IMG/VR virus record: IMGVR_UViG_3300033463_000005
Location: 64,001-128,000 of that record
Direction: 5' to 3' (one strand)
Length of the DNA stretch: 64,000 nucleotides
Source of the DNA: a virus
Taxonomy: Duplodnaviria; Caudoviricetes
Part shown: in pieces, positions 37,453 through 63,051 of the stretch
How the letters are laid out: the number at the start of each line of letters is the position of its first letter
How positions within the stretch are numbered: the stretch's first letter is position 1
Translations under genes and position numbers: made by a program
Notes under the pieces: generated by a model
What the model was told of the DNA's origin: nothing
Database searches by the model: none
What the model saw: the letters and a program-made list of their open reading frames with translations, nothing else

Positions 37453-37614
37453 TCAGTCATTTTCATCTGTCATCAAAGCAGATGCGATGGTTGGTGGTTC
37501 AGGCATGTTTTCCTGAACGGGTTCAACATGATTCGTTGGAGTCGGAAGTGTCATTTCCGCAAAGCGTTTACATGCTTCACATGCCGCTTGCTCAAATGAA
37601 AAACGTTCGTTCAT
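37453..37614 (-). CDS. Small 53-aa protein not in the ORF track
   Basis: ATG overlaps the upstream TGA (TGATG); MNERFSFEQAACEACKRFAEMTLPTPTNHVEPVQENMPEPPTIASALMTDEND; fills the gap exactly. Confidence 0.6.
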   Translation of the reverse strand: MNERFSFEQAACEACKRFAEMTLPTPTNHVEPVQENMPEPPTIASALMTDEND

Positions 37615-38393
37615 CACAAGACATCCCTAACTTCTTTCATTTCCTTTTTGTTCATAGTATGTTTGTCAGCTTCTCTTTTCGCGATAATTTCTGCAATCTC
37701 CATATTGTTTGCAGTAACAATCGTGTTCAGTTTGGAGGTTACTTCAAGAACAGAAGTGATTTTGTTGAGTTCCTCGGAATTCAGCTTGGAGAAATCCATT
37801 GTTGCATCGGATTTCTTTTTCTGAAGAACCGTGATCAGTTCCTCCAAAATGTCACCCAACTCATTCAGTTTGCTCTTGTATGTCTCAAACTCCATTGATG
37901 TCGATTTTGTGACTTTCTTCAACTTCGGAATTGTCACAGCGCCATCATTGGATGCTTTATAGAAATTCAAGATTTCTGTAAAGACACGATATGCTTCATC
38001 CGGATCATAATCAAGTTTGACACTGGTCCTATCGCCACTGACTTTTACACGAGTAACACCTTTTGCATTTGCGTAGATGCCATCAGCCAGTGAGATTGTA
38101 CCCTTACCAAGATTTTTGAAGAAATTCTTGATCTTCTTGCAAATGAGTTTGATTCCGTCAATGATCCACTGAAAGGCACGCTTGTACCATTTTTCTTTCT
38201 GCTTATCATCGGCTTCTTTTGGAAGCTCTTCGAGTGCTGTCTCTTCACCAGAAGCAGCCTCCATAATCAACGCAGACTTGATGTATGTTTCACCCATTGC
38301 CATCAGAACATCATATTCAGCGACAAGTGTAGCTTCATCAATCATGTCGATAGAATCAAGAACAGCTTCCTGAATCATAGTTTCATCTCTCAT
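37614..38393 (-). CDS. Internal head protein, shared-leader family
   Basis: VLDSIDMIDEATLVAEYDVLMAMGETYIKSALIME-A leader followed by amphipathic helix KWYKRAFQWIIDGIK. Confidence 0.65.
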   Translation of the reverse strand: MRDETMIQEAVLDSIDMIDEATLVAEYDVLMAMGETYIKSALIMEAASGEETALEELPKEADDKQKEKWYKRAFQWIIDGIKLICKKIKNFFKNLGKGTISLADGIYANAKGVTRVKVSGDRTSVKLDYDPDEAYRVFTEILNFYKASNDGAVTIPKLKKVTKSTSMEFETYKSKLNELGDILEELITVLQKKKSDATMDFSKLNSEELNKITSVLEVTSKLNTIVTANNMEIAEIIAKREADKHTMNKKEMKEVRDVL

Positions 38394-38414
38394 GAATGAT
38401 CATACTCCTTTCGG

Positions 38415-39005
38415 TTAATTTGATGATGGGTATGCATCCAGTCTATGAACGACTGGTGTATCCACATTCATAAAGTGCATCCGATTTTGCACAGATGCTT
38501 GTTTGGAATTCGTCTTGGAATTCCGGGTTGCCAACCACAGATACAGATCCATATCATCCCGATATACTTTCGCCAGTTTGTTGAATTGATTGGTTGTCAT
38601 TACAGCAAGCTGTTCAGTTTGGATATCAGGATATTTCTCTTGCATGGATTCCATAACCATTTGTAGATTGTGAGTTCCTGTCAGGAATGATTCCATCACA
38701 GTAGAACGCATATCAGCCAATGTACAAGTTTTCCGATATGGAGAATTCACACCCATATCAGCAAACATGGAATCATAGAAAGACTTTGTTGATTGTAGAA
38801 TCTTTGCATCATATGATTGATCATTCTCATCACGATATGCAACATACCCTTCCAAGAATTCACAGATCTTACCAAAGATCTTACCATAATCCATAGAAGA
38901 ATACATTACATCATCCTTCGGACGGATGTTTGGATATGTGTTTGCAACATCCTCAAACATCGTTCGATATTCGCAAATAATTTCACCAATGTTTTGTGTT
39001 GCCAT
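38415..39005 (-). CDS. Hypothetical (probable virion) protein
   Basis: ATG 39005 coupled to the upstream TAA; helical ~196 aa. Confidence 0.55.
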   Translation of the reverse strand: MATQNIGEIICEYRTMFEDVANTYPNIRPKDDVMYSSMDYGKIFGKICEFLEGYVAYRDENDQSYDAKILQSTKSFYDSMFADMGVNSPYRKTCTLADMRSTVMESFLTGTHNLQMVMESMQEKYPDIQTEQLAVMTTNQFNKLAKVYRDDMDLYLWLATRNSKTNSKQASVQNRMHFMNVDTPVVHRLDAYPSSN

Positions 39006-40042
39006 TATCCTCTCCACCCTTCCGGAAGTGTGACATTTGCACGCCAGACACGATCATTCCGATTTACCGGTTTGATCTTCAGAACTTGTGCCAATAAATT
39101 ATTGAGCTGATTTTGCAATCCTACGAGATATTCCCTCGTATGAGGAACGATATACCGCTCATCTTTCAAATCAATGCAATTTAGATAGAAATCGACCAGA
39201 TCCAATTTTGAACAGATATAACCGGACAACATTGCCTGATCATTTGCATCTTTAATCGCATTCAATTCGATTGTGATATAAGGGATAAGATCTCGCGGAA
39301 TCGGTTTTAGTTTCTTTGGTTTTCTGGAGAAGAATCCTTCCTGGAATGGATCATCCGGATCGTGTGCATATTCTTCATGCACCGTATCACCATCACCCAT
39401 ATCCATGTATTCATAATCGTCATCTGTGATAACGTCATCGTCATCTTCCACAGAATGGATTTCTTCTAACTCATCACCAATATGTGAAGCATCCTCTTTC
39501 AGATCTTCCGGAAGTGAATCATGATCATCCGTACCAAGATAATGATCAACCATATCATCCACAGACTTCTGATTCTTCGGATCCAATTCTTTCATTTGAT
39601 CCATGAACTGTTTTCCGTTCATCATATCAGAAGCACAGATTTCAATCGTTCCATCATCTTTGATACATCCGATGATGCCTGACAAAACAATCTTCAGACG
39701 TTTTGGTTCATATCCATGATGACTCATGGCACGTGTTGGTGTATTTGTCATTGCAACATAAGTTGCATGATTATCCACCTCTTCCGCATCATCAAAGATT
39801 GTACCTTTGGCAATTGCTTCCGAGACACTTTCCATTTGAATCTCACTGACATCCTTTGGATACAATAAATGAATCTCATCATTTTTTGTATACATTCGAA
39901 TGTTTGAACCTTTGTACGAATGAACAATCACATTCTTTTTCCGATCAGGAAAACGAATCTTTGCATATTCGGTGATGGCTTCGAGCTTTCCATTCTTCAG
40001 AAATGCTTTAACCATGTCATGACCAAAACCATTCATTAGCAA
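39005..40042 (-). CDS. Probable virion protein with acidic linker and FQE-G site
   Basis: Acidic tract DDDDVITDDDYEY followed by PFQEGFFSRKPKKLK and a C-terminal domain. Confidence 0.55.
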   Translation of the reverse strand: MLMNGFGHDMVKAFLKNGKLEAITEYAKIRFPDRKKNVIVHSYKGSNIRMYTKNDEIHLLYPKDVSEIQMESVSEAIAKGTIFDDAEEVDNHATYVAMTNTPTRAMSHHGYEPKRLKIVLSGIIGCIKDDGTIEICASDMMNGKQFMDQMKELDPKNQKSVDDMVDHYLGTDDHDSLPEDLKEDASHIGDELEEIHSVEDDDDVITDDDYEYMDMGDGDTVHEEYAHDPDDPFQEGFFSRKPKKLKPIPRDLIPYITIELNAIKDANDQAMLSGYICSKLDLVDFYLNCIDLKDERYIVPHTREYLVGLQNQLNNLLAQVLKIKPVNRNDRVWRANVTLPEGWRG

Positions 40043-40090
40043 ACGTCACCACCTTTCTATTATTTATTTTTATACTGGAGGTATCTTCTT

Positions 40091-40612: not shown

Positions 40613-40621
40613 ATATAGAGT

Positions 40622-40647
40622 GATGGCGGGGGAAATCCCCCGCCATC
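40622..40647. terminator. Hairpin between convergent genes, downstream of the capsid gene
   Basis: gatggcggggga-aa-tcccccgccatc. Confidence 0.75.
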
Positions 40648-40682
40648 CTCCATCAGGCGTTTGATATTATGCTGCCATCAAA

Positions 40683-42971
40683 TTACTGACCACCGTTGCT
40701 GTCCTTGCTGTAGTACTTGTTAGCCTGGAATGCAGGTGCAACGCCAGTAACAGCGGTGCGCTCGCCTTCCTCGGTATCAGCAACATAGTAGGTGCTGTAC
40801 GTGGTAGCCCAATCAGCAGGCTCGGTCTGAATTGCAGAACCACCGGTTGCAGCAGTGAAGTAGAACTTCGTGGTGTCGAATACCGGAGCAACTGCAGTAA
40901 CAGCAACCATCTCAGTCTGAGCATCGTTCAGCTGATAGTAGGTGTTGTAAGTAGTAGCCCAGTTTGCAGGCTCATTCTCAAGAACCGTATAGCCTTCGGT
41001 CGGATCAACCGGAGTCGGGCCAGGAGGAGTTGTACCACCGACCAGACCAGCGTTGGAATCCGGAACGAGGACAGAGTTCTTGCAGATCACGCGACCCTGG
41101 ATACCCTGGATTGCGATGGTCTTGTACTGGGAAGAAGTGGTGACGATAATTGCTGCACCGCCCGGATTCTGTGCATCAGCATAAGCTGCATTCTCCGGAG
41201 AGTTGGTGAGGTGACGTGCGAAGCGGAGGTGCTTGTAGGAGATGTGGAACTTATCCATCGGATATGCCACGATCTTGAAGAAGTACTCGCGAGAGACGTC
41301 GCCTTCCTGTGCACCCTTCTGGTATGCAGGAATGGTGATGTAAGCATCAACACGGTTGGAAGAAACAACACGAATCGGCACATCAGTATCAGTCAGGACA
41401 CCGAATGCGTGGTTCATGGTCACGCCACCGATCTCAGTGCTCTTCTGAACAGTCCAAGTGGTGAACTTGTTGAGAAGACGTGCTGCCTTCGGGTTCGCAT
41501 AGATGACGAAGCCGAGGTTGTCGAGCTTACCACGATCGCAGAGCTCGTAGATAACGGTTGCGATTGCGTTGTTGATCGCGTTGGTTCTGTACTCCCAAGG
41601 ATCGCCAGCGAAGCTCGGGGAGATAGCAGTCGGATCGAGATCAATGTACTCGGTGCAGGTGTAGGACTCGAGTGCGAAGACATCGGTGTCAACACCATCG
41701 TACTTGTCGAACTCCTCATCGAGGAACTCGAGAATGTACTCATCCTCGAACATCTCCTGTGCGGTGACGAGCTCTTGGACGAGACGGTTGTAGAGGTTGA
41801 AGTTCAGTGAAGCATTAGCCTCAGCAAAGTCCTCAACAGTGAACGGGAGCTGGAAGCGAACGCCGTCAGAGATGAGGAACTTACGGATTTCCGGATACTC
41901 ACGGAAACCGATTGTTCTCAGGTTGGTCTCATTGGAGACGTGACCAGAGACATAGATACCGGTGATGGAACCGCAAGAGGTAGCGGTCACAGTACCCTTG
42001 ATGAAGTCGATGACACCAGAGAGACGATCAGAGACATTGTTGATGACCTCACCGGTTGCCTTGTTCGTGGTCGGATCAACAACAGTCAGCTTCTGACCCT
42101 CGGTGATACCGCCATTGAGGAACACACCACCGGTCTGAATGTCGATCTGAATACCACCGTTCGGGAGCTTCACCTTCTTACCATCGATCTGGACATACTG
42201 GATGCCGAAATCATAGGATAGACGAGTGCGAACGTTCGGAGTGATCGTGGTCGGATCACCATTGTCATCAAGCAGCCAGTTGAACAGAGAGTACTTCTTG
42301 TTCGTAGCAGCCTGAATGGTAGCGAGAGGAAGAACGGTCTTGTCGTTGAGACGGAGGCCCTTACCTGCATTCCACAGTTTCTTCCACAGCGGTTGTCCAT
42401 CCTCATCCTTCTGGAAGTAGATAGCCGGGGTCTCATACTCCTCACCAGTCTGGTTGTTGACCAGATACTTGATGAAGATTCTCTGCTCGATGTTCACAGA
42501 GGAAGCTGTCTGAACAGGAATGATATCTTTACCGAGGAAGCGGATGTACTGCTTAATCAGAGCCGGGAAGTCCAGAGTAGAAAGCGGCAGATAGTTTGCC
42601 ACGTTGTAAGACTCCTGGATCAGGAAGGATTGCTTGGAAGCATCCCATGCATTCTCCAGCTGATCAGCAACCTGCTCGAGGTGAACTCTTTCAGCCTCAG
42701 TAGTAACAGGATACTCACGGATATCCTTCAGAATCGGATCAAGCAAGAGTGTCTTGTACTCAAGCATGACTTCCTTAGAATCCATCATACGCTTTGCATC
42801 ACGCATGACATCAACTTTGGCTCTATCTTTCATGAGACCGACAACATTTTCAAAATGCTCGTCAAAGCCATCACGAAGACCACTCAGCTCAGATGCAGAA
42901 GCAGAGTTGACAAGATTCTGCTGCTCCTGGAACCAGGTGTTATGGGAATCCGACGTACGTCTGAATGCCAT
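40683..42971 (-). CDS. Major capsid protein precursor with C-terminal appended repeat domain
   Basis: 762 aa; strongest high-expression codon bias in the window; helical N-terminal propeptide ending FLIQE(120)-S; GKDIIPVQT, VIYANPKAARLL; P/T linker plus repeat tail. Confidence 0.8.
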   Translation of the reverse strand: MAFRRTSDSHNTWFQEQQNLVNSASASELSGLRDGFDEHFENVVGLMKDRAKVDVMRDAKRMMDSKEVMLEYKTLLLDPILKDIREYPVTTEAERVHLEQVADQLENAWDASKQSFLIQESYNVANYLPLSTLDFPALIKQYIRFLGKDIIPVQTASSVNIEQRIFIKYLVNNQTGEEYETPAIYFQKDEDGQPLWKKLWNAGKGLRLNDKTVLPLATIQAATNKKYSLFNWLLDDNGDPTTITPNVRTRLSYDFGIQYVQIDGKKVKLPNGGIQIDIQTGGVFLNGGITEGQKLTVVDPTTNKATGEVINNVSDRLSGVIDFIKGTVTATSCGSITGIYVSGHVSNETNLRTIGFREYPEIRKFLISDGVRFQLPFTVEDFAEANASLNFNLYNRLVQELVTAQEMFEDEYILEFLDEEFDKYDGVDTDVFALESYTCTEYIDLDPTAISPSFAGDPWEYRTNAINNAIATVIYELCDRGKLDNLGFVIYANPKAARLLNKFTTWTVQKSTEIGGVTMNHAFGVLTDTDVPIRVVSSNRVDAYITIPAYQKGAQEGDVSREYFFKIVAYPMDKFHISYKHLRFARHLTNSPENAAYADAQNPGGAAIIVTTSSQYKTIAIQGIQGRVICKNSVLVPDSNAGLVGGTTPPGPTPVDPTEGYTVLENEPANWATTYNTYYQLNDAQTEMVAVTAVAPVFDTTKFYFTAATGGSAIQTEPADWATTYSTYYVADTEEGERTAVTGVAPAFQANKYYSKDSNGGQ

Positions 42972-43024
42972 AAGAAAACAACTCCTTTATTTTTTGGATT
43001 TTAATGTGAGAGACCTTGTCTCTT

Positions 43025-43621: not shown

Positions 43622-43636
43622 TCACCTTCTTTCGTG

Positions 43637-46600
43637 TTAGTAAACCGATTTAGACGTAGCAAATTTCCGTTTTTGAGCATCAGCAGACATTGATACCAAC
43701 TTTGCACGCATGCGCATCAGTTGATACAATTCTTTCTGTTGTTCCGGAGATTGCTTTTCACCATAATAATTATGGGATTTCAGATTTTCAATCTTCTGAT
43801 CAATGATTTGAATCTCGGTTGCAATTTCATCATTCGCTTCTTTGCGCAACCGTTCACGGTCTGCTAATTTCAGACCCTGTACGCCAAGATATGTTGCACC
43901 AAGAAACGGAGAAACGGCAGTAAACAGAGCAAATTTTCCAGTCTTCAATGCAAGTCTCGCAACCTTAAAGAGTGCGGATCTGTATGAAGGATTTTCAACC
44001 AACTCTGCTTTGACACGATCTTCATCTCGTTTGACAAAAGAATCGACCATCTTACGAAGCCATAATTTGGTTCTTCCAATCGGTTTGACAATTGCTCTTG
44101 CGGTATTTCCAACTTTTTGTACACCGCGTTTTGCTTTCTGGTGTAGAGAAAGCATGGCCATGTCAGCATCCTGTAATGTTGTTGACAAAGGTACTGACGG
44201 AGGAGTACCAGCATCCGATTCGACAAATAGGGGCTCTTTAGAATCCAAAAGTGCGAACACTTCCTGAACACTCTTTCCATTGGAAAAAGTATCAGGTGAT
44301 TCCTTAGAATTTGAAGAAGGCCTGGTATTATCATAATTGTTTGATGCTTTATTACGTCCAGCATGATTTGTCCGTTTATTGGACGACAAATCGTTTGTCG
44401 TAACTGTTGTCGTAGTGGTTTTACCAGAGGACAAATCATTTGTGGTGGTTGTGTTGTGGGAGTTTGTATTGTAAGTGATATTGTAAATCACCTGACCCGC
44501 ACCACCATGTGAAGGATTCTTGATGTCACCTTTGTAACCAGAGCCGAGCATATCACCAATCGATTCCGCATCTGGTGTATTCAAACGTGCTTGAATGGAA
44601 TCTGCCAAATCATCGAAATCATTTGTCGGAACATCCGGTGGAAGTTGAACATCAAGCGGAGAAGATGGATCACTGGTAGAATCATTCGATTGATCCGATG
44701 GTTTGTCATCAGACAGATTGATGCGTTCCTTCATATAGGTTGGAATGTCACCAAGTTCTTGCTCTTGAATAGATTCATCTTCTTCAACTTCTTCTGTTTC
44801 AGTGTCTTCTTCAACCGGCTCTTCTTCATCTTCATCTTCATCAGAATCAACCGGATGACCAAACACGGGCTTTCCCTCCCAATCATCCAGATGATCCAAA
44901 AGCATCTCGATATTATTCCAGAAAGGTTTGATATCGGATTTCAGAACATTTTCGATTTCGAATGGATTATCCGAGAACATGATAGAACCGTCATTGACAT
45001 TCAAATACAAACATTTGATTTGCTCTTCAATGTCATCCGGCATATCCATATCAGGATCATCAAACGGATACCATTCTGCAAACATCAGTAATCCGTTCTG
45101 AACCATGACTTTACCGATCTCGGTGTTCTGCAATGCAGCCAACATATCGGCGAATGAGAAAACATTACCAAGCATTCCACCGTTATCACATTTGATCAGT
45201 TTTCCATGCTTCGGTGGATGGTTGATGAACTCGATGAATTCTTTCGGGAGATGTTCGCCAAGTTTCTTTTCGATCTGATTGATCTTCTTCCGTTTAGACT
45301 TCTCTTTCAGCTTTGCAATGAAACCTTCTTGAATCGGCTCATCAAACAATTGATACGATTCACCAATGTATTGATCAATCTTAATTGGGGATGAGCCCTT
45401 GTTATATAGAGCATCACCAATGGAAGCAATGTCCTGGTATACAGCTTCCATGAACGCATCACAATACTTCATGTCGGACAATGACATGTCACCCAACAGT
45501 TTCATCGTATCCAAAGCGTATTCTGTCACCTGATCAGAGGTCTCAACAACATCGGTTGTTTTGGTTTGCTTCTGATACGGGTTGGCAGAACGGGAGTTCT
45601 GATTGATTCTGGCACGAATCTTTTTCACAAATCCATCCTCTGTCGGATAATCTTTTTCCTTCACATCGTCCGGAAGGAGATTATAAAGGATATCAAAATA
45701 GATACGAGAATCGAAAATGTTGAACAATGTCAAAATCGTGTTGTTTGAAATCGTAGCATTCTCTTGATTCGCCAGATTCAATTTCATGAAATCTTCGATG
45801 AAGCGAATGGTTCCCTCTTTATCAATTTTGAATGTTGTGAAAATATCGTAACGTCCGAATCTCTTGGCTCCGTTATTCTTTCGAATAATGGAAGAGTATG
45901 ATTTTGCATAATCCTTGAATGCAGGATGTTGCGTAACTTTGATGTCCCATTTGTTCTTCTTCATTGTGAAGATGTTTGCATAAATGAACGGCATCACATT
46001 ATCCGCAAACATTGTCACATCCGATTCCGGAATAGAAGAAAAATATGATGCAAGATCATCCGTATTATCACATTCACGAAGCTTCTTCAATAATGCATTC
46101 ACCCGGGATTCCAGTTGTCTAGAAATCTTCCATTTCTTTGACTTGGAATCATAAGTAACGTGCTCCGGTTTCTTCTCCGTGAAATAATTCACTGCAGCAG
46201 CTTCCTGAACAGTTTCATCAATGACGATTTCACAATCCTGGAGATCGGTGAAAGATTCGAAACGCTGTTTCTCGGTATCTTCCATCATGTCCTCGGGAAG
46301 TTTGATTTGATCATTTTCGAAGATGGATTGTACATAATCCGCACCATCGAACAGTTTATATTCGCCGGGGAATTTTGCAATGGAATCCAACTCCGGAACA
46401 GGGATCGGTGCGGTGAACAGTTGGATTGCTTCACGATACTTCGATGGAGTTGTGAACAACTCAAATGAATAGATACCGTTCAACAAGTCTTCAAACTGAT
46501 TGAAATTGTTTGCGATATATTGCAGCACTTTGAAGCCGACAAATGCGTGTAGATGATCCTGTGCAACCTGATTGGATCCATTCAGAATTGCAAACCATGG

Positions 46601-47455
46601 ATCATTCTGTGCAACTGATACGAGTTCTTCCGCAGCTTCTTGCACTGGTTCATCTTCCAACTTTCGCAATCCATCATAAATATCATCACAGAATTTATAC
46701 AATACTTCGATACATTTTTCAACTTCTGCTTTAACTGTTGCGATGCCACCTTCGATATTTTCAAAATATGTTTCTTTATCCTCGGCGACACTCTGATCCA
46801 TCCATTTTGAGAATCTATTTTGAAATTCATTCAAAGATGTGGATGCTTCATCATAAATATTGGGGAATCTCTTGTACAGCGGAGACTGAACTTTGATACA
46901 ATCATCAATCCGTTTACAGAGTTCCTTCAGATAATCGATAAAATCAAACAGAACTGACCCGGCACCCAATTCAAAGTTTTCCGGATCCCATTGATCATCA
47001 AACGAATCGTCGGTCTTTCCATCGAATCGTGCAGCAAACCAACCAACACCCGTATCAAGTAAATCAAATAATTTTTGATCTGCCGGAGTGTTCTTTTCAT
47101 ACTTACGATTTTTGATATGCTGTCTGATACCGCTGACAATGTTTGCCAATGCAAATAGTGCCGCCGTGATGCCCATCGCGGCCCCAATAACACCTTCCTG
47201 TTGCACTTCGGGTTTTTCACCAATTGTTTCACGAAGACCATTCAATGCATCCATCGCTTTTTGCGGATTATCAACCCATTCTGGTTCGATATTATCCAAC
47301 CATGAAATTGTACGAGAGATAATCCGATCCAATTGAAATTCATCATTCACAACCGGAAATGCTTTTGTCTTGAAACTGGATGCAAAAAATTTGTTCATCG
47401 CATCAATTGCAACTTTGATATTGTCAAAGTATGTCTTCTTAATGACAATTTGCAT
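43637..47455 (-). CDS. Large internal head polyprotein containing a SMI1/KNR4 (SUKH)-like domain
   Basis: Junction motifs VQQEG, PVQEA, TVQEA, PIQEG, SIQEQ, SVQEV, FVES; INQIEKKLGEHLPKEFIEFI...LLMFAE...LYLNVNDGSIMF; RBS favours ATG 47455. Confidence 0.65.
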   Translation of the reverse strand: MQIVIKKTYFDNIKVAIDAMNKFFASSFKTKAFPVVNDEFQLDRIISRTISWLDNIEPEWVDNPQKAMDALNGLRETIGEKPEVQQEGVIGAAMGITAALFALANIVSGIRQHIKNRKYEKNTPADQKLFDLLDTGVGWFAARFDGKTDDSFDDQWDPENFELGAGSVLFDFIDYLKELCKRIDDCIKVQSPLYKRFPNIYDEASTSLNEFQNRFSKWMDQSVAEDKETYFENIEGGIATVKAEVEKCIEVLYKFCDDIYDGLRKLEDEPVQEAAEELVSVAQNDPWFAILNGSNQVAQDHLHAFVGFKVLQYIANNFNQFEDLLNGIYSFELFTTPSKYREAIQLFTAPIPVPELDSIAKFPGEYKLFDGADYVQSIFENDQIKLPEDMMEDTEKQRFESFTDLQDCEIVIDETVQEAAAVNYFTEKKPEHVTYDSKSKKWKISRQLESRVNALLKKLRECDNTDDLASYFSSIPESDVTMFADNVMPFIYANIFTMKKNKWDIKVTQHPAFKDYAKSYSSIIRKNNGAKRFGRYDIFTTFKIDKEGTIRFIEDFMKLNLANQENATISNNTILTLFNIFDSRIYFDILYNLLPDDVKEKDYPTEDGFVKKIRARINQNSRSANPYQKQTKTTDVVETSDQVTEYALDTMKLLGDMSLSDMKYCDAFMEAVYQDIASIGDALYNKGSSPIKIDQYIGESYQLFDEPIQEGFIAKLKEKSKRKKINQIEKKLGEHLPKEFIEFINHPPKHGKLIKCDNGGMLGNVFSFADMLAALQNTEIGKVMVQNGLLMFAEWYPFDDPDMDMPDDIEEQIKCLYLNVNDGSIMFSDNPFEIENVLKSDIKPFWNNIEMLLDHLDDWEGKPVFGHPVDSDEDEDEEEPVEEDTETEEVEEDESIQEQELGDIPTYMKERINLSDDKPSDQSNDSTSDPSSPLDVQLPPDVPTNDFDDLADSIQARLNTPDAESIGDMLGSGYKGDIKNPSHGGAGQVIYNITYNTNSHNTTTTNDLSSGKTTTTTVTTNDLSSNKRTNHAGRNKASNNYDNTRPSSNSKESPDTFSNGKSVQEVFALLDSKEPLFVESDAGTPPSVPLSTTLQDADMAMLSLHQKAKRGVQKVGNTARAIVKPIGRTKLWLRKMVDSFVKRDEDRVKAELVENPSYRSALFKVARLALKTGKFALFTAVSPFLGATYLGVQGLKLADRERLRKEANDEIATEIQIIDQKIENLKSHNYYGEKQSPEQQKELYQLMRMRAKLVSMSADAQKRKFATSKSVY

Positions 47456-47501
47456 ATGGGAAACTCCTTTCAATTATTTTACCTGAACAATATGAATGAA
47501 G

Positions 47502-49710: not shown

Positions 49711-50607
49711 TTAAACTTCAGCTCTATTATCATCCGCTTCACCATGCTTGAAAACACTCATGTATTTCTCGGTGATTTTTGAAATAATCTGTGTTATTTG
49801 TGATAGATTCACAGATACAATCATTGCGTCGTTATTGATGCTGTCAGTTTTTTGTTTCAAATATTCATCAATGTCAACATCTTGTTCCATCGGTGCTTTT
49901 TTCAAAAACTCACCAGCATCTTTTTGCATCTCATTGGCTTGATACGTGACATTTTCCGCGATCTTCATACAGCTTTTAAGGTTTTCTTTACCTCGCTGAA
50001 TCACTCGAGCAAGTCTATGTTTTTCATTACCTGGATATGTTCTCGCAGTGAATATTGCATTGAAGCCCTCTTTATTTTCCCTATATTTATCAAGAGCGTT
50101 TTTTAGATCTCCAGTTTTTTCACTCATAGTAGAAAAATATGTCAAGAATTGAGCTGGTGTCGGTTGCTCATCTAATTCCATATAACGTAGGTTAATATAC
50201 AGAGTCCCTATAAAGTTATCAAATTCGTCATAATCAATCGGCAGTGATTCTCGAAAGAGCTCCGAATCCAATATATCGGGATCGTAAATTCCAGCCGTCA
50301 AATTGAGCATTGTACTGATTAATTTTACAATGATTCTCATGAATTTCATAATTAATCTCGGAATAAACATGAGAATCTTTTTAATTTTAGATTCGCCATA
50401 TTGACCTTTCAAAGGAGCATTTAAATCGTTAAAAATTTTTCCTTCTTGGAAGATGTCAAATGATGAAAGATCGGACGATTCATCAGCTTCTTGCAAAATA
50501 ACAACTGATTTTGAATAAGCGTTTAATAAGTCATTAATGACAGATAATTCAGACAATGTTGTTTGTTCCTGAATCTTGTCGACGTATTGCAATAACGATT
50601 CTTGCAT
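49711..50607 (-). CDS. Internal head protein, shared-leader family
   Basis: LLQYVDKIQEQTTLSELSVINDLLNAYSK...DIFQE-GKI then GQYGESKIKKILMFIPRL. Confidence 0.7.
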   Translation of the reverse strand: MQESLLQYVDKIQEQTTLSELSVINDLLNAYSKSVVILQEADESSDLSSFDIFQEGKIFNDLNAPLKGQYGESKIKKILMFIPRLIMKFMRIIVKLISTMLNLTAGIYDPDILDSELFRESLPIDYDEFDNFIGTLYINLRYMELDEQPTPAQFLTYFSTMSEKTGDLKNALDKYRENKEGFNAIFTARTYPGNEKHRLARVIQRGKENLKSCMKIAENVTYQANEMQKDAGEFLKKAPMEQDVDIDEYLKQKTDSINNDAMIVSVNLSQITQIISKITEKYMSVFKHGEADDNRAEV

Positions 50608-50612
50608 GCATA

Positions 50613-51467
50613 TCACCTGCCATTCAGAAGAATATCAAGTGCCTCACGACGAATCTCACCACGAAGCGGAATGTGCATTCTGGAACCATCACACTGTTCA
50701 ACAATGATAGATTCATTTTGAATTCCCATCAATTCTTCTGGTGAAATCTGGAATGATTCGCAAACAACACGAAGATCTTCTGACTTCTCGGCACAATACT
50801 TTGCCAGTTCTTTCAGAAATACAACGGTACCTTCCTGATGAACTGTCGGCTGAATATCACCATCTGCATTTTCATGAGACGGGAAATCGACCATATCATA
50901 TGTGATAACTTTTGAAACACGCATATTCGGTTGGCCCATCGGAGCGGTCGGAATCATAGTTCCCAAGAGACGAACCGAGAATGATGGGACAGAGCCCATA
51001 TCGATGATTTCAACAGCTGCACCACGGCCAGTTTCGAATGCTGGGTCAGTTGTGATAATCGCACGATACCGGTCACCCTCCAAACGATTCTTTCGAATCA
51101 TATGAGAAGTGCGTGTTTGCTCCGGAATGTACATACGAATTTCGGACAAACGTTCACCGGCAATATCCGCATTCGGGTGGTTCAATTCACCACGCCATTT
51201 GTTCTGACAAATCAATGTTTGAATTCTTTCATCACCATCAATGACAGAAACAAGATTCATCGGATCATAACGACGTTTCATGCGGTTATAACAATTGAAT
51301 GTTTGAAGTGTTGCATCAAACTCAACATATGGTGCACCATTCGACGCACGGAACATTTTGTATCCACGTGGATCTACTTTGAATGATGGGATCTCTGCGT
51401 CTTGTGGTGCTTCTTGAACAAAACAAGCAGTTTCATACTTGTTTGTCTGTGTGCTTTTTAACGGCAT
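50613..51467 (-). CDS. Prohead (head maturation) protease, T4 gp21/HK97-assemblin fold
   Basis: YNRMKRRY, WRGELNHP, RTSHMI, PSFSVRLLG, VITYDMVDFPSH; RBS GAAAGGAG favours ATG 51467. Confidence 0.85.
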   Translation of the reverse strand: MPLKSTQTNKYETACFVQEAPQDAEIPSFKVDPRGYKMFRASNGAPYVEFDATLQTFNCYNRMKRRYDPMNLVSVIDGDERIQTLICQNKWRGELNHPNADIAGERLSEIRMYIPEQTRTSHMIRKNRLEGDRYRAIITTDPAFETGRGAAVEIIDMGSVPSFSVRLLGTMIPTAPMGQPNMRVSKVITYDMVDFPSHENADGDIQPTVHQEGTVVFLKELAKYCAEKSEDLRVVCESFQISPEELMGIQNESIIVEQCDGSRMHIPLRGEIRREALDILLNGR

Positions 51468-51486
51468 ACAATTCATACTCCTTTCA

Positions 51487-52008: not shown

Positions 52009-52704
52009 TTATTCCTCCGTCGATTCAGTTTTCTGTTCAGTCTCTGCAGGAGCCTCTGTTGTTTCATCAGTCTTTTTGGTTTTGGCTTTGCTAGCAGAAG
52101 GTTTGTTCTTCTCTGCAACATCGATAACCTTCTCGGACAGCTTAAAGAACTTCTCGAGTTGTGCGGAGAAATCGGAAGTATCATCCTGTTTCTTTGCACG
52201 ACGTTTGATTACTTTCTGATCGCGCATAATGTCATGGGCAATACCAACAAACTCAGCAACAGTACGCTCATCATCAGATGAATAATATTTTCTCTTAACG
52301 CTGTTCATTGCAGGTGTTAGATAATCGAATGTTTTGAAGCAAAGTGCAGAGATAGCACTCAACGCTTTCTTCAGTTTGCGGAAATTCTTGACACCCATCT
52401 TTCCATCAGTGTTACCAGATTCATCTCTCACAAGATTAGCAACCTTCACAATCTCTTTACCGAGAGATTCACTGAACTTATTCAGATAATGTCTTTCTGT
52501 CAATCTTCTGGCGATATTAGCAGCAATACCAATCAGCGGTGCGGCAATCAGCAATTCAAGCAGTGTAAACTCTTGAACGATTTCATCATTATCATTCATC
52601 TCAGTATGCTTGTCATAATATTCGAGAATTGCATCCTCGACATCCAAAGACGACTGCATCACGTTAGTATCGATCGCGTTAATACTATTCATCAATTCAT
52701 TCAT
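52009..52704 (-). CDS. Internal head protein, shared-leader family; predicted mature N-terminus is type IV pilin-like
   Basis: MNELMNSINAIDTNVMQSSLDVEDAILEYYDK...EIVQE-FTLLELLIAAPLIGIAANIA. Confidence 0.6.
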   Translation of the reverse strand: MNELMNSINAIDTNVMQSSLDVEDAILEYYDKHTEMNDNDEIVQEFTLLELLIAAPLIGIAANIARRLTERHYLNKFSESLGKEIVKVANLVRDESGNTDGKMGVKNFRKLKKALSAISALCFKTFDYLTPAMNSVKRKYYSSDDERTVAEFVGIAHDIMRDQKVIKRRAKKQDDTSDFSAQLEKFFKLSEKVIDVAEKNKPSASKAKTKKTDETTEAPAETEQKTESTEE

Positions 52705-52724
52705 AATAAACAACTCCTTATATG

Positions 52725-53699
52725 TTATTTGGTTTTCTTACCAACCGCTTTTGCACGGGCTTTCGCATCATCCGTCGAAATCTTTTTCGCTGTTTTGAAA
52801 TCTCCCTGCTCTTTGGCACGTTCGATCTTCTTTCCAATAACAGCCTGATGATTGGATGACGTAACCTTGCGTTGTCCACCTTTCTGGACACGATCTGTTT
52901 CTTGTAACTGTTTTGCACTTGCACCAGAAACTTTACCGAGCAATCCTGTTAATCCAGAGATAATGCCATTCAACCGTTGTTCTGTTCCAGGAGGAGCATT
53001 CTCAACCTTACCTTTTCTGACAGCATTTCTTTGTTTGACAGCTTTACTCTTCAGCGTTTGTAACATTTCCGGAACAGATGCAACCGTGTCAAGACCTTTA
53101 TTGATTGCTTCGCCAGCTGTAGACATTGTCATCTTAACAGCTTTGCTTTCTTTGATCGTTCTGACCGCTTTGTCAGCAACTTCAGTTGCACCAGCAATCA
53201 CATTCTCTATTCTACTGATAGAAGAGTCCGACAAATCGAGATCCAATTTGTCAAAACGTTTCTTGACTTCCGTCATGAGTTTTGAGACAGTATCATAGTC
53301 ATATGCGAATGTGACATCACCACCTGACTGTACTGCAGCTTTTCCACCCATTGCACGTTCCAATGATTCAATTCGAGCATTCTGTGAATCAAGTTGATAT
53401 CTCAATTTATCATTCTCTTTTCGCAATTCAGCAATCTTATATCTGGAAAATAGATTCTTGAATTTGCGAGAAAAGAAATCACAAATAATAGGAAGCTTGT
53501 CTGTCAAGAATGAAGCGGCACCGATCACACCTTCTTGGACAAAATCATCTTCGGTGGTTTCGCAACATCCTTCCTGGATCATTTGCTGACGTTTTGAGAA
53601 ATATTCGCATTGTGATTCTGCAACGGATGTAATTGCATCGATTTCATTTTGTTCAATGTTATCGATGCATTGTAACAAAGAACCATACTCATCAAACAT
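52725..53699 (-). CDS. Internal head protein, shared-leader family (basic C-terminus)
   Basis: RBS GAAGGTGA favours ATG 53699; SLLQCIDNIEQNEIDAITSVAESQCEYFSK...MIQEG...FVQE-GVIGAA. Confidence 0.65.
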   Translation of the reverse strand: MFDEYGSLLQCIDNIEQNEIDAITSVAESQCEYFSKRQQMIQEGCCETTEDDFVQEGVIGAASFLTDKLPIICDFFSRKFKNLFSRYKIAELRKENDKLRYQLDSQNARIESLERAMGGKAAVQSGGDVTFAYDYDTVSKLMTEVKKRFDKLDLDLSDSSISRIENVIAGATEVADKAVRTIKESKAVKMTMSTAGEAINKGLDTVASVPEMLQTLKSKAVKQRNAVRKGKVENAPPGTEQRLNGIISGLTGLLGKVSGASAKQLQETDRVQKGGQRKVTSSNHQAVIGKKIERAKEQGDFKTAKKISTDDAKARAKAVGKKTK

Positions 53700-55501: not shown

Positions 55502-56254
55502 TTATCTGGATTCTTTATTAATATCTTTCATTGCAGAATGCAATTTTTCGATACTATAATAAGATTCTGAAATAATATCAGTTTTGATTCCCATCGCTTT
55601 CAGGAATAGATCCGTTTGAAGCAATGTGGGTTTGTCATATACACCGGTTTTAATATCACTCAATTTGACGTTGCCAGAACGAGAAATCTCATCCAGCATA
55701 TTATCATACTCCGTGACATTATCACCACGAGCACCTGAAATTTCAGACAGGATATCATCAGCACCAATACCAGCAAGCAACTCGTTTTCAACACCCGTTG
55801 TGGTACCACCCTTGGATTCGCCTTTCACAGCACCAGTGTTTTCATCACGATCCGTGTCACTCAAAGCCAGGCCCGTCTTCTTCATGACCATCTGCTGCGG
55901 ACGTTTGATATTGAGATATCCAACCAGAACAGGTTGTCTGGTTCTTACAGGTCGGTTTGGATTTGATGAGATGTGCGGTAAGTAAACATATTCGAATAAT
56001 TTGATTCCAAGTTTATCTGCCGCTTTCTCCATATTTTCAAACATCATCTTTCTGGAGTTATCTCCAAACTCTTCGATGTCAACACGGAAATTACTTTTTG
56101 GATCTTGCAAGAATTTTGTGATCCATTGTGTGAATTGATCATCTGACATTACTTGAAACATGTTTCGATATTTCTCTGCATTGGTTCCAGATGGATCCAT
56201 GATTTTTAAAATATCATTGACCAATGTTTCGACCTGTTTTCTCTTGTCATTCAT
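55502..56254 (-). CDS. RNA polymerase beta-subunit C-terminal fragment (split phage multisubunit RNAP)
   Basis: PVLVGYLNIKRPQQMVMKK, GESKGG...ENELLAGIGADDILSEISGARGDNV and LFLKAMGIKTDI align collinearly with RpoB PVTVGYMYMLKL.HLVDDK, GG...[25 protein letters not shown] and LLKEIRSLGINIEL. Confidence 0.8.
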   Translation of the reverse strand: MNDKRKQVETLVNDILKIMDPSGTNAEKYRNMFQVMSDDQFTQWITKFLQDPKSNFRVDIEEFGDNSRKMMFENMEKAADKLGIKLFEYVYLPHISSNPNRPVRTRQPVLVGYLNIKRPQQMVMKKTGLALSDTDRDENTGAVKGESKGGTTTGVENELLAGIGADDILSEISGARGDNVTEYDNMLDEISRSGNVKLSDIKTGVYDKPTLLQTDLFLKAMGIKTDIISESYYSIEKLHSAMKDINKESR

Positions 56255-56312
56255 GCATGAACACAACTCCTTTCTGGATTGAAGTTACAGAAACGTTTCT
56301 TATATAGTATAT

Positions 56313-56335: not shown

Positions 56336-56453
56336 GCAATTTATAATAGTATAAAACAATAATTTTATCAAGAATGTATTCATTGAAAAACTCGATGTTA
56401 AACCTCTGAGATATGAGGATTTTAAATATTTTCAATGTAAAGGAGTATGAACT

Positions 56454-58901: not shown

Positions 58902-58919
58902 TCAGGGAGGTCAACAGTT

Positions 58920-61103
58920 ATGAAGAATCAAACATTCAAGGAATCGGTTGAAAATAAAATCAAACAATCTCCATCATTGATTGCTGCATTGGAATCCGTT
59001 GCAGCAATGTATGGTATTCCTGCGGAGAATATCGTGGTGGATGATCGTTTGAATTCTATCCAGGTGCAAGGTGATACGATCCTTGCACCTGATAAACCGA
59101 ATCCGTCACAAAACACACAATCAATCGTGTGTGCAATTGGTGCGGTTCTCGATTACATTTCCCAGAGAATCGATAAGAAGCTGGATGCTTATCAGGCAGA
59201 CAATATTGCGAAAGCGCAGGAACCAGTTCAGCCTCCTGTTCCAGCACCTTCTCCTGCGGATGTGCCGATTGAACCGGATGCAACATCATCCACATACTTC
59301 ACCGATGAAGATGATGTCATGAAGAATGTTCCAACACAAGTTGACATCAAACAAGCATTGGCACAGGCCGAGAATAATATTCCAGCTCAAATCAATGAGT
59401 CTGCTTTGATGGTAGATCTGGTTGATCGTTTCCATGGTACAACAACACTCGGTTATGATTTGCTTCAGCATCAAGGATTCGATTTTGTACAGCCGACAAA
59501 CAAAATCGTTCAGGAAGCTGACGAAGGTGAATCTTCCGAAGCATCCGGTTCAATGAAACAAATTCAACATATGAAATTTGATAACTCCAAGATTTTGGAT
59601 GCTATCAAATTATTCAATGATGCATATGTTGAATCATTGAAGGATGGTCCCATTGACGAAGATGAAAATGAAAAACCAAAACCGAAACCGGAAGAAAAGA
59701 AACCCGAGCCAGATTCATCAGATAATAAATCCGATGATAAAACGGATGATAAAACGGATGATAAAAAGGGTGCTGCCGGTAATAGTGGTTCTAACGAGAA
59801 ACCTTCAAGAGTTAAAGTCTCCAGAATGATGAAAACTCCTGAGTGGAAAATGGGTGTCAAACGTCTGGAAGAACAGTTTGATTGTAAACTGAAAATCAAT
59901 TATGACCCTGAACACGAGACAAACATGTACACGATGATCAATGAAAACCAAAGACGTGAGAAATTGATCATCTCTAAAAGTAAGGGCTTCCAACTCAGTG
60001 GTATGAGAATTAATATCACAATTGCTGGACGCATGATGGACACATTCATCAAATATCGTGACAAGCAATTATTTGGTCAATCAATGGTGTCTGTTTTCCT
60101 TCACGAAATCTTCCACAACATTGTCCAAATGATTGCGCAGTTTGATTTTGATTTCATCACGTCGATGTCATCTACGATGATGATTGCAACTTCAACAAAA
60201 AGTGTGAAAGCACGTCGTGCAATCTTTTCAAACTATGTAAAATCAATTCGTTCAATTGACGGAAAGAAACTTGGTTTGTTTGAACGAAAGAAAATGATTC
60301 GTCAATTGCTTTACATCTCGGCAGCACAATACGATGCCAATATGATCAATGAATTGAAAAAGCAGATTGATTCTGGTGAAGCTTCAAAAGATACAATCGA
60401 CAAATATATCAAAGCCATGGAAAAGTCGATTGAAAAAGAGAAGAAGTGGAGAGAACGCAGAGACAAGCCTCTTATCAAAGTTCTGAATGCAATCATGGTC
60501 ATCGGTGGATTGTTGACAGTATTTATCGGCGTTGGTTTCATCATCCTGTTCGCATGGTCAATGTTGCCGATTTCCGGCATGAAACAATCCGACTATGAGA
60601 AATGGTTGAAAGAATACTTGAATAATCCAAACAAAGAAGAATACTACTGTGATCTATTTGCCGGTATTTACAATTTACCAGTCACATTCTTACTCGGTAG
60701 CGTATCTCTGACCGGTGGTAAAACGGCATCGAGAATTGATGATCCGCGTTTAAAGAAACTTGCTTCTTTAGAAAAAGAAATTTCACAAATGATTTTCTCA
60801 ACATATCCGACATTGGAAGAAAGATGCTATGCTTCCGTTAAGATTGCGAAGAAAGCATTGGAAGACAATCCGGATATGGATCCGTCACTAAAGGAATATC
60901 TCCAGTGGATTATTGACAATTATAAGAATCTGGAAGATATTGGTATTGAGGATGATTACAATGCCGGTGCATTCAATCCAAAAGAAGCAGATGATTTGGA
61001 TGAACACATTCAGAGAATCATCGACCATGGTGATGTGACTGTCACGGAATCTGCAAAGCCATTTCAGAAGAAATCAAAGATCGGTCGATTTTCAAACAAT
61101 TGA
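58920..61103 (+). CDS. Zinc metallopeptidase (M48/zincin-like) with transmembrane segment, probable virion precursor
   Basis: FLHEIFH, hydrophobic segment AIMVIGGLLTVFIGVGFIILFAW, EEYYCDLFA, STYPTLEER; INES and IVQE-A sites upstream. Confidence 0.7.
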   Translation: MKNQTFKESVENKIKQSPSLIAALESVAAMYGIPAENIVVDDRLNSIQVQGDTILAPDKPNPSQNTQSIVCAIGAVLDYISQRIDKKLDAYQADNIAKAQEPVQPPVPAPSPADVPIEPDATSSTYFTDEDDVMKNVPTQVDIKQALAQAENNIPAQINESALMVDLVDRFHGTTTLGYDLLQHQGFDFVQPTNKIVQEADEGESSEASGSMKQIQHMKFDNSKILDAIKLFNDAYVESLKDGPIDEDENEKPKPKPEEKKPEPDSSDNKSDDKTDDKTDDKKGAAGNSGSNEKPSRVKVSRMMKTPEWKMGVKRLEEQFDCKLKINYDPEHETNMYTMINENQRREKLIISKSKGFQLSGMRINITIAGRMMDTFIKYRDKQLFGQSMVSVFLHEIFHNIVQMIAQFDFDFITSMSSTMMIATSTKSVKARRAIFSNYVKSIRSIDGKKLGLFERKKMIRQLLYISAAQYDANMINELKKQIDSGEASKDTIDKYIKAMEKSIEKEKKWRERRDKPLIKVLNAIMVIGGLLTVFIGVGFIILFAWSMLPISGMKQSDYEKWLKEYLNNPNKEEYYCDLFAGIYNLPVTFLLGSVSLTGGKTASRIDDPRLKKLASLEKEISQMIFSTYPTLEERCYASVKIAKKALEDNPDMDPSLKEYLQWIIDNYKNLEDIGIEDDYNAGAFNPKEADDLDEHIQRIIDHGDVTVTESAKPFQKKSKIGRFSNN

Positions 61104-61116
61104 GGTGATATGAACC

Positions 61117-61860
61117 ATGCGACGAACGAAATGCATGTTCTGTCCAAAGATATTTGATGATAAACATAAGTATTGTCATCATGTCGCATCTCAGCATAAT
61201 GATCAGATCCCAGAAGATCAGGAACCATTAGAATTTGCATATTCGTTGTTGGTCCATAAACCAACTGGAAGATCGTGTGTGATTTGTCGCAAGAATCCGG
61301 TCAACTTCAATCAACAAACGTTGAAGTATGACCGGATTTGCGATAATCCGCAGTGTAAAGAAGAATATGTGAAATTAATGAAAGCGCGAATGGTTCGTGT
61401 ACATGGACAAGAACATTTGTTGAATGATGCGGATATGCAACGAAAGATGTTGTATAACAATCACAATGCACGTGATTTCATTTGGGATGCGGATCATAAG
61501 TTCCGTGTGATCGGTACATATGAAGAAGACTTCCTAAAGAAACTGCGTTCGATCGGTTGGAGTCCAAATGATGTGATTGCGCCATCACCAAACAATTATT
61601 GGTATAAATGGAAAGATGGAACGTTGCATCTTTACATACCCGATTTCTACATTCCATCATTGTCATTGGAAGTTGAAATCAAAGAATCCGATAACAAACA
61701 CCCAAGAATGGAACATGAACGCGAAATGGAAGCATTGAAAGATAAACGATTACATGATGAAGAAAAGAAAACCAATATTCATTACATCAAAATCGTTGAT
61801 AAGAACTACGATGAATTCATTCGCGATTATGTGAAGTCTGATGAAAATAAACCAGAATAA
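61117..61860 (+). CDS. Zinc-finger PD-(D/E)XK endonuclease
   Basis: C2H2 finger CMFC...HVASQH, CVIC...CDNPQC, YIPDFY...EVEIKE. Confidence 0.7.
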   Translation: MRRTKCMFCPKIFDDKHKYCHHVASQHNDQIPEDQEPLEFAYSLLVHKPTGRSCVICRKNPVNFNQQTLKYDRICDNPQCKEEYVKLMKARMVRVHGQEHLLNDADMQRKMLYNNHNARDFIWDADHKFRVIGTYEEDFLKKLRSIGWSPNDVIAPSPNNYWYKWKDGTLHLYIPDFYIPSLSLEVEIKESDNKHPRMEHEREMEALKDKRLHDEEKKTNIHYIKIVDKNYDEFIRDYVKSDENKPE

Positions 61861-61876
61861 CAAAGGAGGATTTATT

Positions 61877-62050
61877 ATGCCAAAAAAGAATACGATTTTT
61901 TCTTCTTCTACAGAAAAGAAGGAGACAAAGACAAGAAAAAAGAAAACTGAAGTCAAAGAAGAAGAATCATTGGAACTTTCTGCTGAAATGGATGAAGAAC
62001 TCTCCAATGGTCTCGGTGATGATGAAGAGGAAGATGGTGAATCTGTATGA
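61877..62050 (+). CDS. Small basic/acidic protein
   Basis: RBS AAAGGAGG before ATG 61877; K-rich N-half, E/D-rich C-half. Confidence 0.55.
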   Translation: MPKKNTIFSSSTEKKETKTRKKKTEVKEEESLELSAEMDEELSNGLGDDEEEDGESV

Positions 62051-63051
62051 ATGAATTATTAACATATATTGATCAAATCGATACTGCATCATGTATTGCA
62101 GAAATGGAAACACTGAATGCATTATGTGATTCCTATATAAAAGCATCGATGATTATTGAAGCTGTCGATGAATCTACAGACACATCATCGTTTAGTATTT
62201 TCCAAGAACTAAATACTGATACACTTAAAGATGCATTTAGAAATTTCATGTATACCGATGGAACTATGCCGCATGGAAAACCCGGAGAAAGTGTTGTAAA
62301 AAAGATACTATTATTCATTCCGAGATTGTTTTTGATGTTTTTACGACAGCTAATGAAGCTTGTCGTCTTCATAGTAGGTCATTTAGTGGATGACATAATA
62401 TCTATAAAAGATGATAAATATCGGTATCTCCCGATTGATCCAGAGGTATTTCGATCCGATATACTTAATCAGATTGATAATTTAATTAGTCTATTTAAAG
62501 ATGTGCATGAACATGTACCGAATAACTGTGACTCACCAGCGAAATATTATTCGATATTAGTCTCGACGGTTATTGATCTGACTAATGGGTTCGAAATACC
62601 AACAGTGAATGGCAAAATGAAAAATGCTACAATGGAAATTGCATTAGACGAGTTCGCTAAATATTTAAAGCAGTATGACGATGGAGGTTCAAAACACAAA
62701 AAACTGTTTAAAGAAACCAAAGAAAATTCACCACAGTCACAGGAATATACCTCTAAGCTAATGAAAAAATCATATCACAATACAGTTAGAGAATTGAAAA
62801 ATCTCATAAAAAGACTTAATTATGTGAATAAAAATTTCAAACAACAATATGAACAAGATGAAGCTATGGGTGATGCATATCGTGCAGTAAATAAAATGCG
62901 ATCTAACCTAGCATATATTCTTCAATTTTTGGCAAAGATTTCTACTACGTGTACAGAATATTCCAATAAACATAAATTGAATGAATATAAAGATTCATAT
63001 CGCTATGATTCTGCTGAATTTGATGATGACTACAACGAGGAGGAATCTTAA
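62047..63051 (+). CDS. Internal head protein, shared-leader family
   Basis: MNELLTYIDQIDTASCIAEMETLNALCDSYIKASMIIEA...SIFQE-L then GKPGESVVKKILLFIPRL. Confidence 0.7.
   Translation: MNELLTYIDQIDTASCIAEMETLNALCDSYIKASMIIEAVDESTDTSSFSIFQELNTDTLKDAFRNFMYTDGTMPHGKPGESVVKKILLFIPRLFLMFLRQLMKLVVFIVGHLVDDIISIKDDKYRYLPIDPEVFRSDILNQIDNLISLFKDVHEHVPNNCDSPAKYYSILVSTVIDLTNGFEIPTVNGKMKNATMEIALDEFAKYLKQYDDGGSKHKKLFKETKENSPQSQEYTSKLMKKSYHNTVRELKNLIKRLNYVNKNFKQQYEQDEAMGDAYRAVNKMRSNLAYILQFLAKISTTCTEYSNKHKLNEYKDSYRYDSAEFDDDYNEEES

Follow-up and report, generated by a model that had tools for sequence, protein, structure and literature searches.

A probable family of internal head proteins with a common leader in an uncultured AR9/phiR1-37-like jumbo phage

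The window analyzed here is a 64,000-nucleotide stretch of viral DNA, bases 64001 to 128000 of the 258,509-bp IMG/VR record IMGVR_UViG_3300033463_000005, which has a G+C content of 38.8%. Its head module contains genes whose products all begin with an acidic leader, and eight such genes are found in the record as a whole. Judging from their sequences, these eight genes probably encode the internal head proteins, present as a multi-copy family, of a jumbo phage that is uncultured and resembles AR9 and phiR1-37. The leader itself is quite likely to be a cleavable propeptide, and probably one that targets the protein to the capsid. The principle is already established in T4, phiKZ, and SPN3US, for which shared propeptides, cleavage after Glu, internal or ejected proteins, and cargo fusions are all known. 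The finding thus extends a known theme to a new lineage and is not a new mechanism, while the family itself is new and unannotated. Its leader offers a sequence handle for predicting head-built, protease-trimmed proteins across a clade of uncultured jumbo phages. Coordinates are window positions unless marked as genome, and leader genes within the window are called by their first coordinate (Table 1).

A preliminary description of the window had proposed that seven genes on both strands, five of them clustered around the prohead protease gene, share an acidic N-terminal leader that acts as a portable packaging-and-cleavage tag on unrelated payloads. The shared leader and the arrangement of the genes were borne out. 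All seven open reading frames (ORFs) are present, six of them minus-strand and the other plus-strand, and five flank the protease gene. The hidden Markov model (HMM) of the seven N-termini that had been suggested as a check re-finds all seven among the 1,228 ORFs of the genome (E 4e-20 to 9e-27) and adds an eighth gene outside the window at E 1.4e-10, after which the next-ranked ORF falls to E 0.058. The leaders of this genome are 41-58 residues long, with a net charge of -7 to -12 and an isoelectric point (pI) of 4.1. They are predicted to form a confident helix, with a predicted local distance difference test score (pLDDT) of ~90 in AlphaFold2 (AF2) models of 49711 and 47566. Two candidate cut sites, separated by some 15 residues, are present in most leaders; in the 47566 type the spacer is missing and there is a single site.

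The leader defines a large metagenomic family. A ten-sequence leader profile of ~59 positions was searched against 1.84 billion protein cluster representatives and matched 571 of them at E<=1e-3, including 77 at E<=1e-10. Of the 149 best matches, 148 have a leader that begins at residue 25 or earlier, and full-length members range from 202 to 565 amino acids (aa). An alignment of 130 members shows one invariant position, a Lys, and conservation of 90% or more at the terminal Gln-Glu and at five other positions (two Ile, a Glu, a Val, and a Tyr). Among 132 full-length members, 124 have hydrophobic-Q-E at the leader end, and the residue that follows is G (78 members), S (20), or A (14). The median leader charge across the family is -11, with the remainder of the protein net positive in 70%. 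Ten sampled clusters were all metagenomic, none named beyond "hypothetical protein". The family has no PHROG match and only weak matches in Pfam. One member of the search output, P0058, is an ankyrin-repeat false positive, and a match in phiR1-37 (E 0.008) was rejected as an 80-aa ORF with none of the family's features. Scans of viral contigs with 47566 and 52725 found no relative.

Cutting of the leader by the head protease is well supported at the sequence level, because the motif at the leader end recurs at the probable maturation sites of the capsid protein and of the protease and is enriched throughout the genome. Across 207 likely genes, 46 instances of hydrophobic-Q-E plus G, S, or A were counted, compared with 8.9 +/- 2.9 after residue shuffling (maximum 17 in 200 shuffles), an enrichment of about five-fold; five control variants of the motif occur 3-18 times. 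In the major capsid protein, an I-Q-E at residues 118-120 marks a border, with the N-terminal 120 residues variable and the remainder nearly identical, and both the site and the sequence downstream of it are kept in the relative L003. At the aligned position, PDB entry 7x30_A reads I-L-M-E|S. The protease has a site close to each of its own ends, F-V-Q-E|A on the N-terminal side and H-Q-E|G on the C-terminal side, and both are kept in relatives L002 and L003. The motif is also found in the 345-aa, 410-aa, and 1278-aa proteins of the head module. Cleavage after Glu is established for T4 gp21 and phiKZ gp175, and propeptides often hold several sites so that the fragments can clear the head (PMC9026906, PMC5694885, PMC10052503). 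The enzyme encoded here passes the gathering score of Pfam Peptidase_S80 (PF20034) at 29.1 bits (cut-off 23.4, E 6.8e-7) and matches the PHROG head maturation protease at 1.9e-11. By tblastn among GenBank phages, its only relatives, 27-29% identical, are the head maturation protease of Yersinia phage phiR1-37 and a match in Bacillus phage Goe21, which is PBS1-like. As the probable protease motif of the clade, hydrophobic-Q-E with G, S, or A can be used to predict the mature ends of proteins, among them the capsid protein, the 1278-aa head-module protein, and polyproteins.

Several other gene products carry sites of this kind. The eighth leader gene adjoins, divergently, the gene for a 1,639-aa polyprotein with four hydrophobic-Q-E-[GAS] sites, and a 989-aa protein encoded elsewhere in the genome also has four. 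Residues 277, 422, and 714 of the 1278-aa head-module protein mark three acidic D-E-x-hydrophobic-Q-E|A/G sites. In L002, the homologue is 958 aa long, with no aligned counterpart for approximately residues 100-271 and 717-905 and a conserved C-terminal third. The 1278-aa protein may be portal-like and carry a giant propeptide; it has no sequence match in Pfam, PHROG, or PDB. In the 345-aa protein, P-F-Q-E|G-F-F is preceded by a long run of acidic residues and leads into a basic stretch. The relative L006 keeps Y-E-E|A-F-F at this place, and the protein is probably a further protease substrate with a different kind of propeptide.

Conservation in the leader proteins continues past the cut. A hydrophobic or amphipathic helix occupies the post-cut position in all eight, with Kyte-Doolittle scores of 0.5-2.0 for the most hydrophobic 19-residue window among the first 80 residues of the mature protein. 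Four of the proteins (47566, 49711, 62047, and the eighth) also have in common a second module of ~40 residues after the cut, of the form G-E-S ... P-R-L-I, which is detected by blastp at 1e-7 to 1e-11. In the wider family, the module is present in 89 of 132 members and a hydrophobic helix at this place in 100 of 132. At the sequence level, the conserved unit is therefore the leader together with the N-terminal helix of the mature protein. The preliminary description had the proteins unrelated after the leader and a short helix, which holds for the tails beyond the helix but not for the four genes with the common module. The mature parts are basic in five of the eight, with pI values of 8.4-9.9.

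A hydrophobic helix placed after the leader in most members would also suit an N-terminus that has nothing to do with the capsid, and that serves instead as an oligomerization or regulatory domain of membrane-associated phage proteins acting, for example, in lysis timing or superinfection exclusion, the Q-E being structural. The leader proteins are, after all, putative virion components. However, the genes lie within the head module and recurrently beside the prohead protease, and their order of protease, 164-aa gene, and leader gene is repeated in L019, L020, and L022. The terminal motif is that of the probable capsid and protease maturation sites, with its genome-wide enrichment, and the acidic leader is not a secretion signal and precedes the hydrophobic segment rather than following it. 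We regard a membrane role of this kind as very improbable.

Read as internal head proteins, the family members each have three parts: a propeptide of 41-58 residues that is acidic and helical, a basic helix, hydrophobic or amphipathic, beginning shortly after the last cut site, and a very fast-diverging tail of 150-300 residues built of long helices. In the proposed mechanism, the propeptide would bind the assembling prohead core or shell, as do the T4 capsid-targeting sequence (CTS) and the phiKZ and SPN3US propeptides, such that the protein is built into the prohead. The Peptidase_S80 protease encoded in the middle of the cluster would then cut after Glu at one or two hydrophobic-x-E sites, of which the last would almost always be hydrophobic-Q-E followed by G, S, or A. 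The acidic fragments would exit the head, and the mostly basic mature proteins would remain with the DNA, some of them probably being ejected along with it. Cutting would leave the hydrophobic helix exposed, and it could then interact with a membrane or with other partners. Both the copy number and the position of the genes shift between related phages.

Alternatively, the proteins may act as prohead scaffold or core proteins that are cleaved by the protease and then largely expelled, with nothing functional reaching the host. Elongated helical proteins, several copies of which adjoin the protease and capsid genes, would fit such a role. The strict motif is, however, confined to the leader region, and hydrophobic-Q-E-[GAS] occurs in no tail, whereas T4 gp22 is cut up into small peptides (PMC5694885). 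It would be unusual for a phage to have eight divergent scaffolds whose bodies are hypervariable, and the mature parts are mostly basic, as is expected for proteins retained with DNA. A pure scaffold role is therefore improbable.

The tails are the most variable part of the family. Pairwise comparison of the eight is at chance level, with z scores below 2.5 in 26 of 28 pairs and a maximum of 4.2. The tails of 135 family representatives form 68 blastp clusters, and hhalign between the profiles of these clusters gives a best probability of 49%. Diversity of this order could arise if the leader, with or without the helix, were a portable loading-and-cleavage cassette recombined onto unrelated, injected host-takeover or anti-defence effectors, analogous to polymorphic toxins. 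Comparison with relatives offers further points in favor. An extra 451-aa gene in L013 is 63% identical to 47566 in the leader and 52% in the module, with only 16% identity in the tail, and its tail matches no other family tail. Leader-gene orthologues are about 34-70% identical compared with 81-91% for neighboring genes, and the number of leader genes at the protease locus is five in this genome, six in L013 and L014, and 0 in L002 and L003. A short motif common to the 47566 tail and the L013 451-aa paralogue was considered by eye as a sign of homology and rejected (z 0.76).

Recombination of the leader onto unrelated effectors is nevertheless unlikely. No Pfam or PHROG domain, enzyme domains included, is found in the eight tails, and 130 members hold no recurrent Pfam domain apart from weak phiKZ_IP matches. 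The only strong Pfam match in those 130 members, THF_DHG_CYH_C in P0138 (6e-19), was rejected as a payload since it lies upstream of the leader, and it is most likely read-through in a partial gene call. A search with the 47566 tail, the sole tail searched separately, returned only leader-bearing orthologues of 367-370 aa and no leaderless relative; for this one tail, then, the C-terminal part was not found as an independent domain family that also exists free of the N-terminal module. The AF2 model of 49711 (m81e6e1d8318b) is all-alpha, and that of 47566 (mcc6c27631be0) is mostly long helices with one small, confident alpha/beta insert. Both modeled tails are thus long-helical, as would be expected of one fast-drifting helical family. 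Foldseek, the other suggested check, was run for these two modeled proteins (49711 against BFVD, 47566 against PDB) and found only generic helical bundles at E>0.02, with no match to a known fold. An ESM Atlas search with the 52725 payload alone gave no usable match. Divergence and copy-number change are, moreover, documented for structural paralogues of the PF12699 family, which number 2 to 7 copies per phage and in which SPN3US gp53 and gp54 are only 34% identical despite identical N-termini (PMC5694885). Of the tag first proposed, what stands is an acidic N-terminal helix ending at a probable capsid and protease maturation motif; its portability onto unrelated effectors is not supported. 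The overall picture fits internal head proteins that form a rapidly diverging set of paralogues, and paralogy on a single fold, which the preliminary description named as refuting its tag, was neither demonstrated nor excluded.

It is also possible, if doubtful, that the leader and hydrophobic helix form a delivery cassette and that the hypervariable tails act on the host after injection, diversifying under an arms race. The tails would then be candidates for a part in membrane remodeling for an early infection vesicle or in anti-defence, the latter of which can only be surmised. If this were true, a search with the leader profile would yield candidate injected proteins of uncultured jumbo phages by the hundreds, and the junction that follows the helix would be where tails are exchanged. 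The fast divergence and changes in copy number fit an arms-race family and, equally well, a structural family under low constraint. The idea of an engineerable delivery tag is already practiced in T4 and phiKZ.

Known systems provide the closest guide to how an internal head protein family would function, and the present family most likely works like the internal head proteins of phiKZ and SPN3US and the CTS-bearing internal proteins of T4. The phiKZ proteins gp92-95, gp97, gp162, and gp163 and the SPN3US proteins gp53 and gp54 are likewise multi-copy, fast-diverging paralogues of a head module with a gp175-type (S80) protease. They too have N-terminal propeptides with several Glu-ending sites, conserved N-termini on diverged paralogues, a copy number that varies among related phages, and a basic amphipathic helix after the maturation cut. 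The context here is similar, with eight paralogues, five of them around an S80 protease, and leaders with one or two hydrophobic-x-E sites. The propeptides of PF12699 paralogues are long and are cut at several sites, and the paralogues are injected (PMC5694885, PMC10052503, bioRxiv 10.1101/2024.03.24.586471). In phiKZ, the paralogues undergo proteolysis as packaging proceeds, several of them are injected together with the DNA, and fluorescent proteins fused to their C-termini are also packaged and delivered (bioRxiv 10.1101/2024.03.24.586471). Packaging and injection are thus demonstrated for phiKZ and predicted for the present family. The propeptide here, at 41-58 residues compared with ~125, is also shorter and is the best conserved part of the protein, and the residue three before the cut is hydrophobic (I/F/V/L) here and S/A/G there.

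In T4, the CTS is an N-terminal tag on several internal proteins (IPI, IPII, IPIII, and Alt) that ends at a hydrophobic-x-Glu site and is removed by gp21. The leader resembles it as a shared N-terminal peptide ending at a prohead protease consensus, conserved on bodies that differ, and the basic mature proteins of T4 stay with the DNA, as is predicted here. The CTS is only 10-20 residues long and is sufficient by itself to load foreign proteins (PMC9026906), whereas the leader is 41-58 residues long, often with two sites. There is no sequence similarity between the two, and the protease here belongs to the S80 (gp175) family, not to that of gp21. A third parallel is SPN3US gp47, in which the prohead protease removes a lengthy N-terminal propeptide and the mature protein starts with a predicted transmembrane or hydrophobic segment (PMC5694885). 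This likeness is one of architecture, and gp47 is a single essential gene and not a multi-copy family.

Among database families, phiKZ_IP (PF12699) alone is linked recurrently, and weakly, to the leader proteins; we do not file the family as a member. The best match in the genome, residues 52-124 of the eighth gene product against HMM positions 74-152, spans the cut site and the helix and reaches 21.1 bits (E 2e-4), below the gathering score of 27 bits. Among 130 family members, four match at E<=1e-3, the best at 4e-6, and all of them fall below the gathering score. In an ESM Atlas feature search with 48674, 6 of 30 neighbors belonged to a cluster set with PF12699 in 35% of its members (score 0.92, 213 of 256 features shared).

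A number of observations weigh against a family of internal head proteins. The PF12699 matches are sub-threshold, and the HMM regions to which they map disagree in three further members, so that membership is not established. An hhalign comparison with phiKZ gp93-95 yields 34 columns at 5.6% probability, with the post-cleavage helix aligned to gp93 residues 159-192; the phiKZ profile in this comparison is shallow, consisting of 3 sequences only, as a search for gp93 homologues gave four close relatives only. The leader profile finds nothing significant in the whole records of phiKZ, phiR1-37, and Goe21, nor does a profile of leader plus module. A typical family member, P0017, has no blastn or tblastn match in 50,697 GenBank phage records, and neither the cluster nor 49711 has one. 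Homology among the tails is not demonstrated by sequence, so a single paralogue family is unproven for the mature parts. Both AF2 models are of low overall confidence, with pLDDT of 68-69 and a predicted template modeling score of 0.32-0.36. Finally, we infer each of cutting, packaging, and ejection, for a phage known only from metagenome assemblies.

In related, near-complete jumbo-phage records of 262-278 kb, there are 4-6 leader copies each. The core head genes are syntenic across relatives, and the leader genes are not. In L002 and L003, the 410-aa gene, the protease, and the 1278-aa gene follow directly on one another, without an intervening leader gene. An endonuclease gene (phrog_15137, DUF7487) is 96% identical to a copy in L013, compared with the 81-91% identity of core genes. 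The L013 copy lies between the 164-aa gene and the orthologue of 49711, the place that the prohead protease occupies in the present genome, and no protease was found in the 18.7 kb of the L013 contig examined. The arrangement looks like either a mobile (homing-type) endonuclease or a rearranged head module.

Table 1. Leader genes and other features of the window and of the remaining record. Coordinates are window positions unless marked genome.
Feature	Coordinates	Strand	Remarks
Leader gene 1, 259 aa	37614..38393	-	Leader HMM E 6.5e-21
Leader gene 2, 368 aa	47566..48672	-	HMM E 7e-23
Leader gene 3, 339 aa	48674..49693	-	HMM E 9e-27
Leader gene 4, 301 aa (GTG start) or 298 aa (start at ATG 50607)	49711..50616	-	HMM E 1.5e-23
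Leader gene 5, 234 aa from TTG	52009..52713	-	HMM E 3.9e-20; ATG 52704 likelier start
Leader gene 6, 324 aa from ATG 53699	52725..53699	-	HMM E 6.5e-26; listed ORF to 53807, leader = residues 44-100 of long ORF
Leader gene 7, 334 aa	62047..63051	+	HMM E 1.4e-23
Eighth leader gene	genome 219558-220532	+	
Major capsid protein, 762 aa	40683-42971	-	PHROG major head protein 2e-9; PDB 7x30_A 6e-6
Major capsid protein I-Q-E codons, residues 118-120	42612..42620	-	Probable maturation cut site
Prohead maturation protease	50613..51476	-	phiKZ gp175 / Peptidase_S80 family; probable start is internal ATG of 323-aa ORF ending 51584
2164-aa ORF	30101-36595	-	Peptidase_M23 domain
345-aa protein	39005-40042	-	
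1278-aa head-module protein	43637-47473	-	
254-aa protein	55502-56266	-	PHROG RNA polymerase beta subunit 4.4e-42
Endonuclease	61117-61860	+	Copy at L013:4334-5077
Endolysin	63051-64000	+	Amidase_2, Pfam 4.8e-14
989-aa protein	genome 178823-181792		
1,639-aa polyprotein	genome 214616-219535	-	

The individual leader genes differ in the number and wording of their sites. In 37614, the leader covers residues 1-45 (window 38259-38393) with a charge of -9 and ends at I-M-E|A, followed by an amphipathic basic helix and a helical tail with a mature pI of 8.7; in L006, the orthologue at the corresponding position carries a pair of sites (IQE|S and IME|A). The short leader of 47566 (residues 1-41) has the single site L-I-Q-E|G, past which come the G-E-S...P-R-L-I module, the small alpha/beta insert, and long helices. 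The leader of 48674 covers residues 1-54 and ends at I-I-Q-E|G, its mature part is basic (pI 9.3), and its orthologue in L013 and L014 is 71% identical. Two sites, I-L-Q-E|A and I-F-Q-E|G, precede the P-R-L-I module in 49711, whose homologues P0003-P0005 are ~60% identical. The leader of 52009 ends at I-V-Q-E|F with the hydrophobic helix directly after it, and its orthologue in L013 is only 34% identical, compared with 81-91% for the neighboring genes. In 52725, the sites are M-I-Q-E|G and F-V-Q-E|G, and the mature part has a net charge of +20 and a pI of 9.9. The true start of this gene is probably the ATG at 53699, because the orthologue begins there (aligning from residue 37) and the overlap with the upstream gene is removed. 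The plus-strand gene 62047 has sites I-I-E|A and I-F-Q-E|L followed by a P-R-L-F module with a strongly hydrophobic helix, and it has a positional counterpart in the relative G001 (L004) that adjoins the same endonuclease gene.

The start of the protease gene was likewise corrected, to an internal ATG near 51476 that is the probable start because the overlap vanishes and the orthologues agree. The head module also encodes several large unannotated proteins. The 254-aa protein within it, which matches the beta subunit of RNA polymerase, is by that match a fragment-sized subunit of a multisubunit phage (virion) RNA polymerase. The 2164-aa ORF, with its Peptidase_M23 domain at residues 1770-1873, may be a tape-measure protein or a tail-associated lysin. 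At the end of the window, the Amidase_2 endolysin runs on into intein-like sequence that matches intein-bearing PHROGs.

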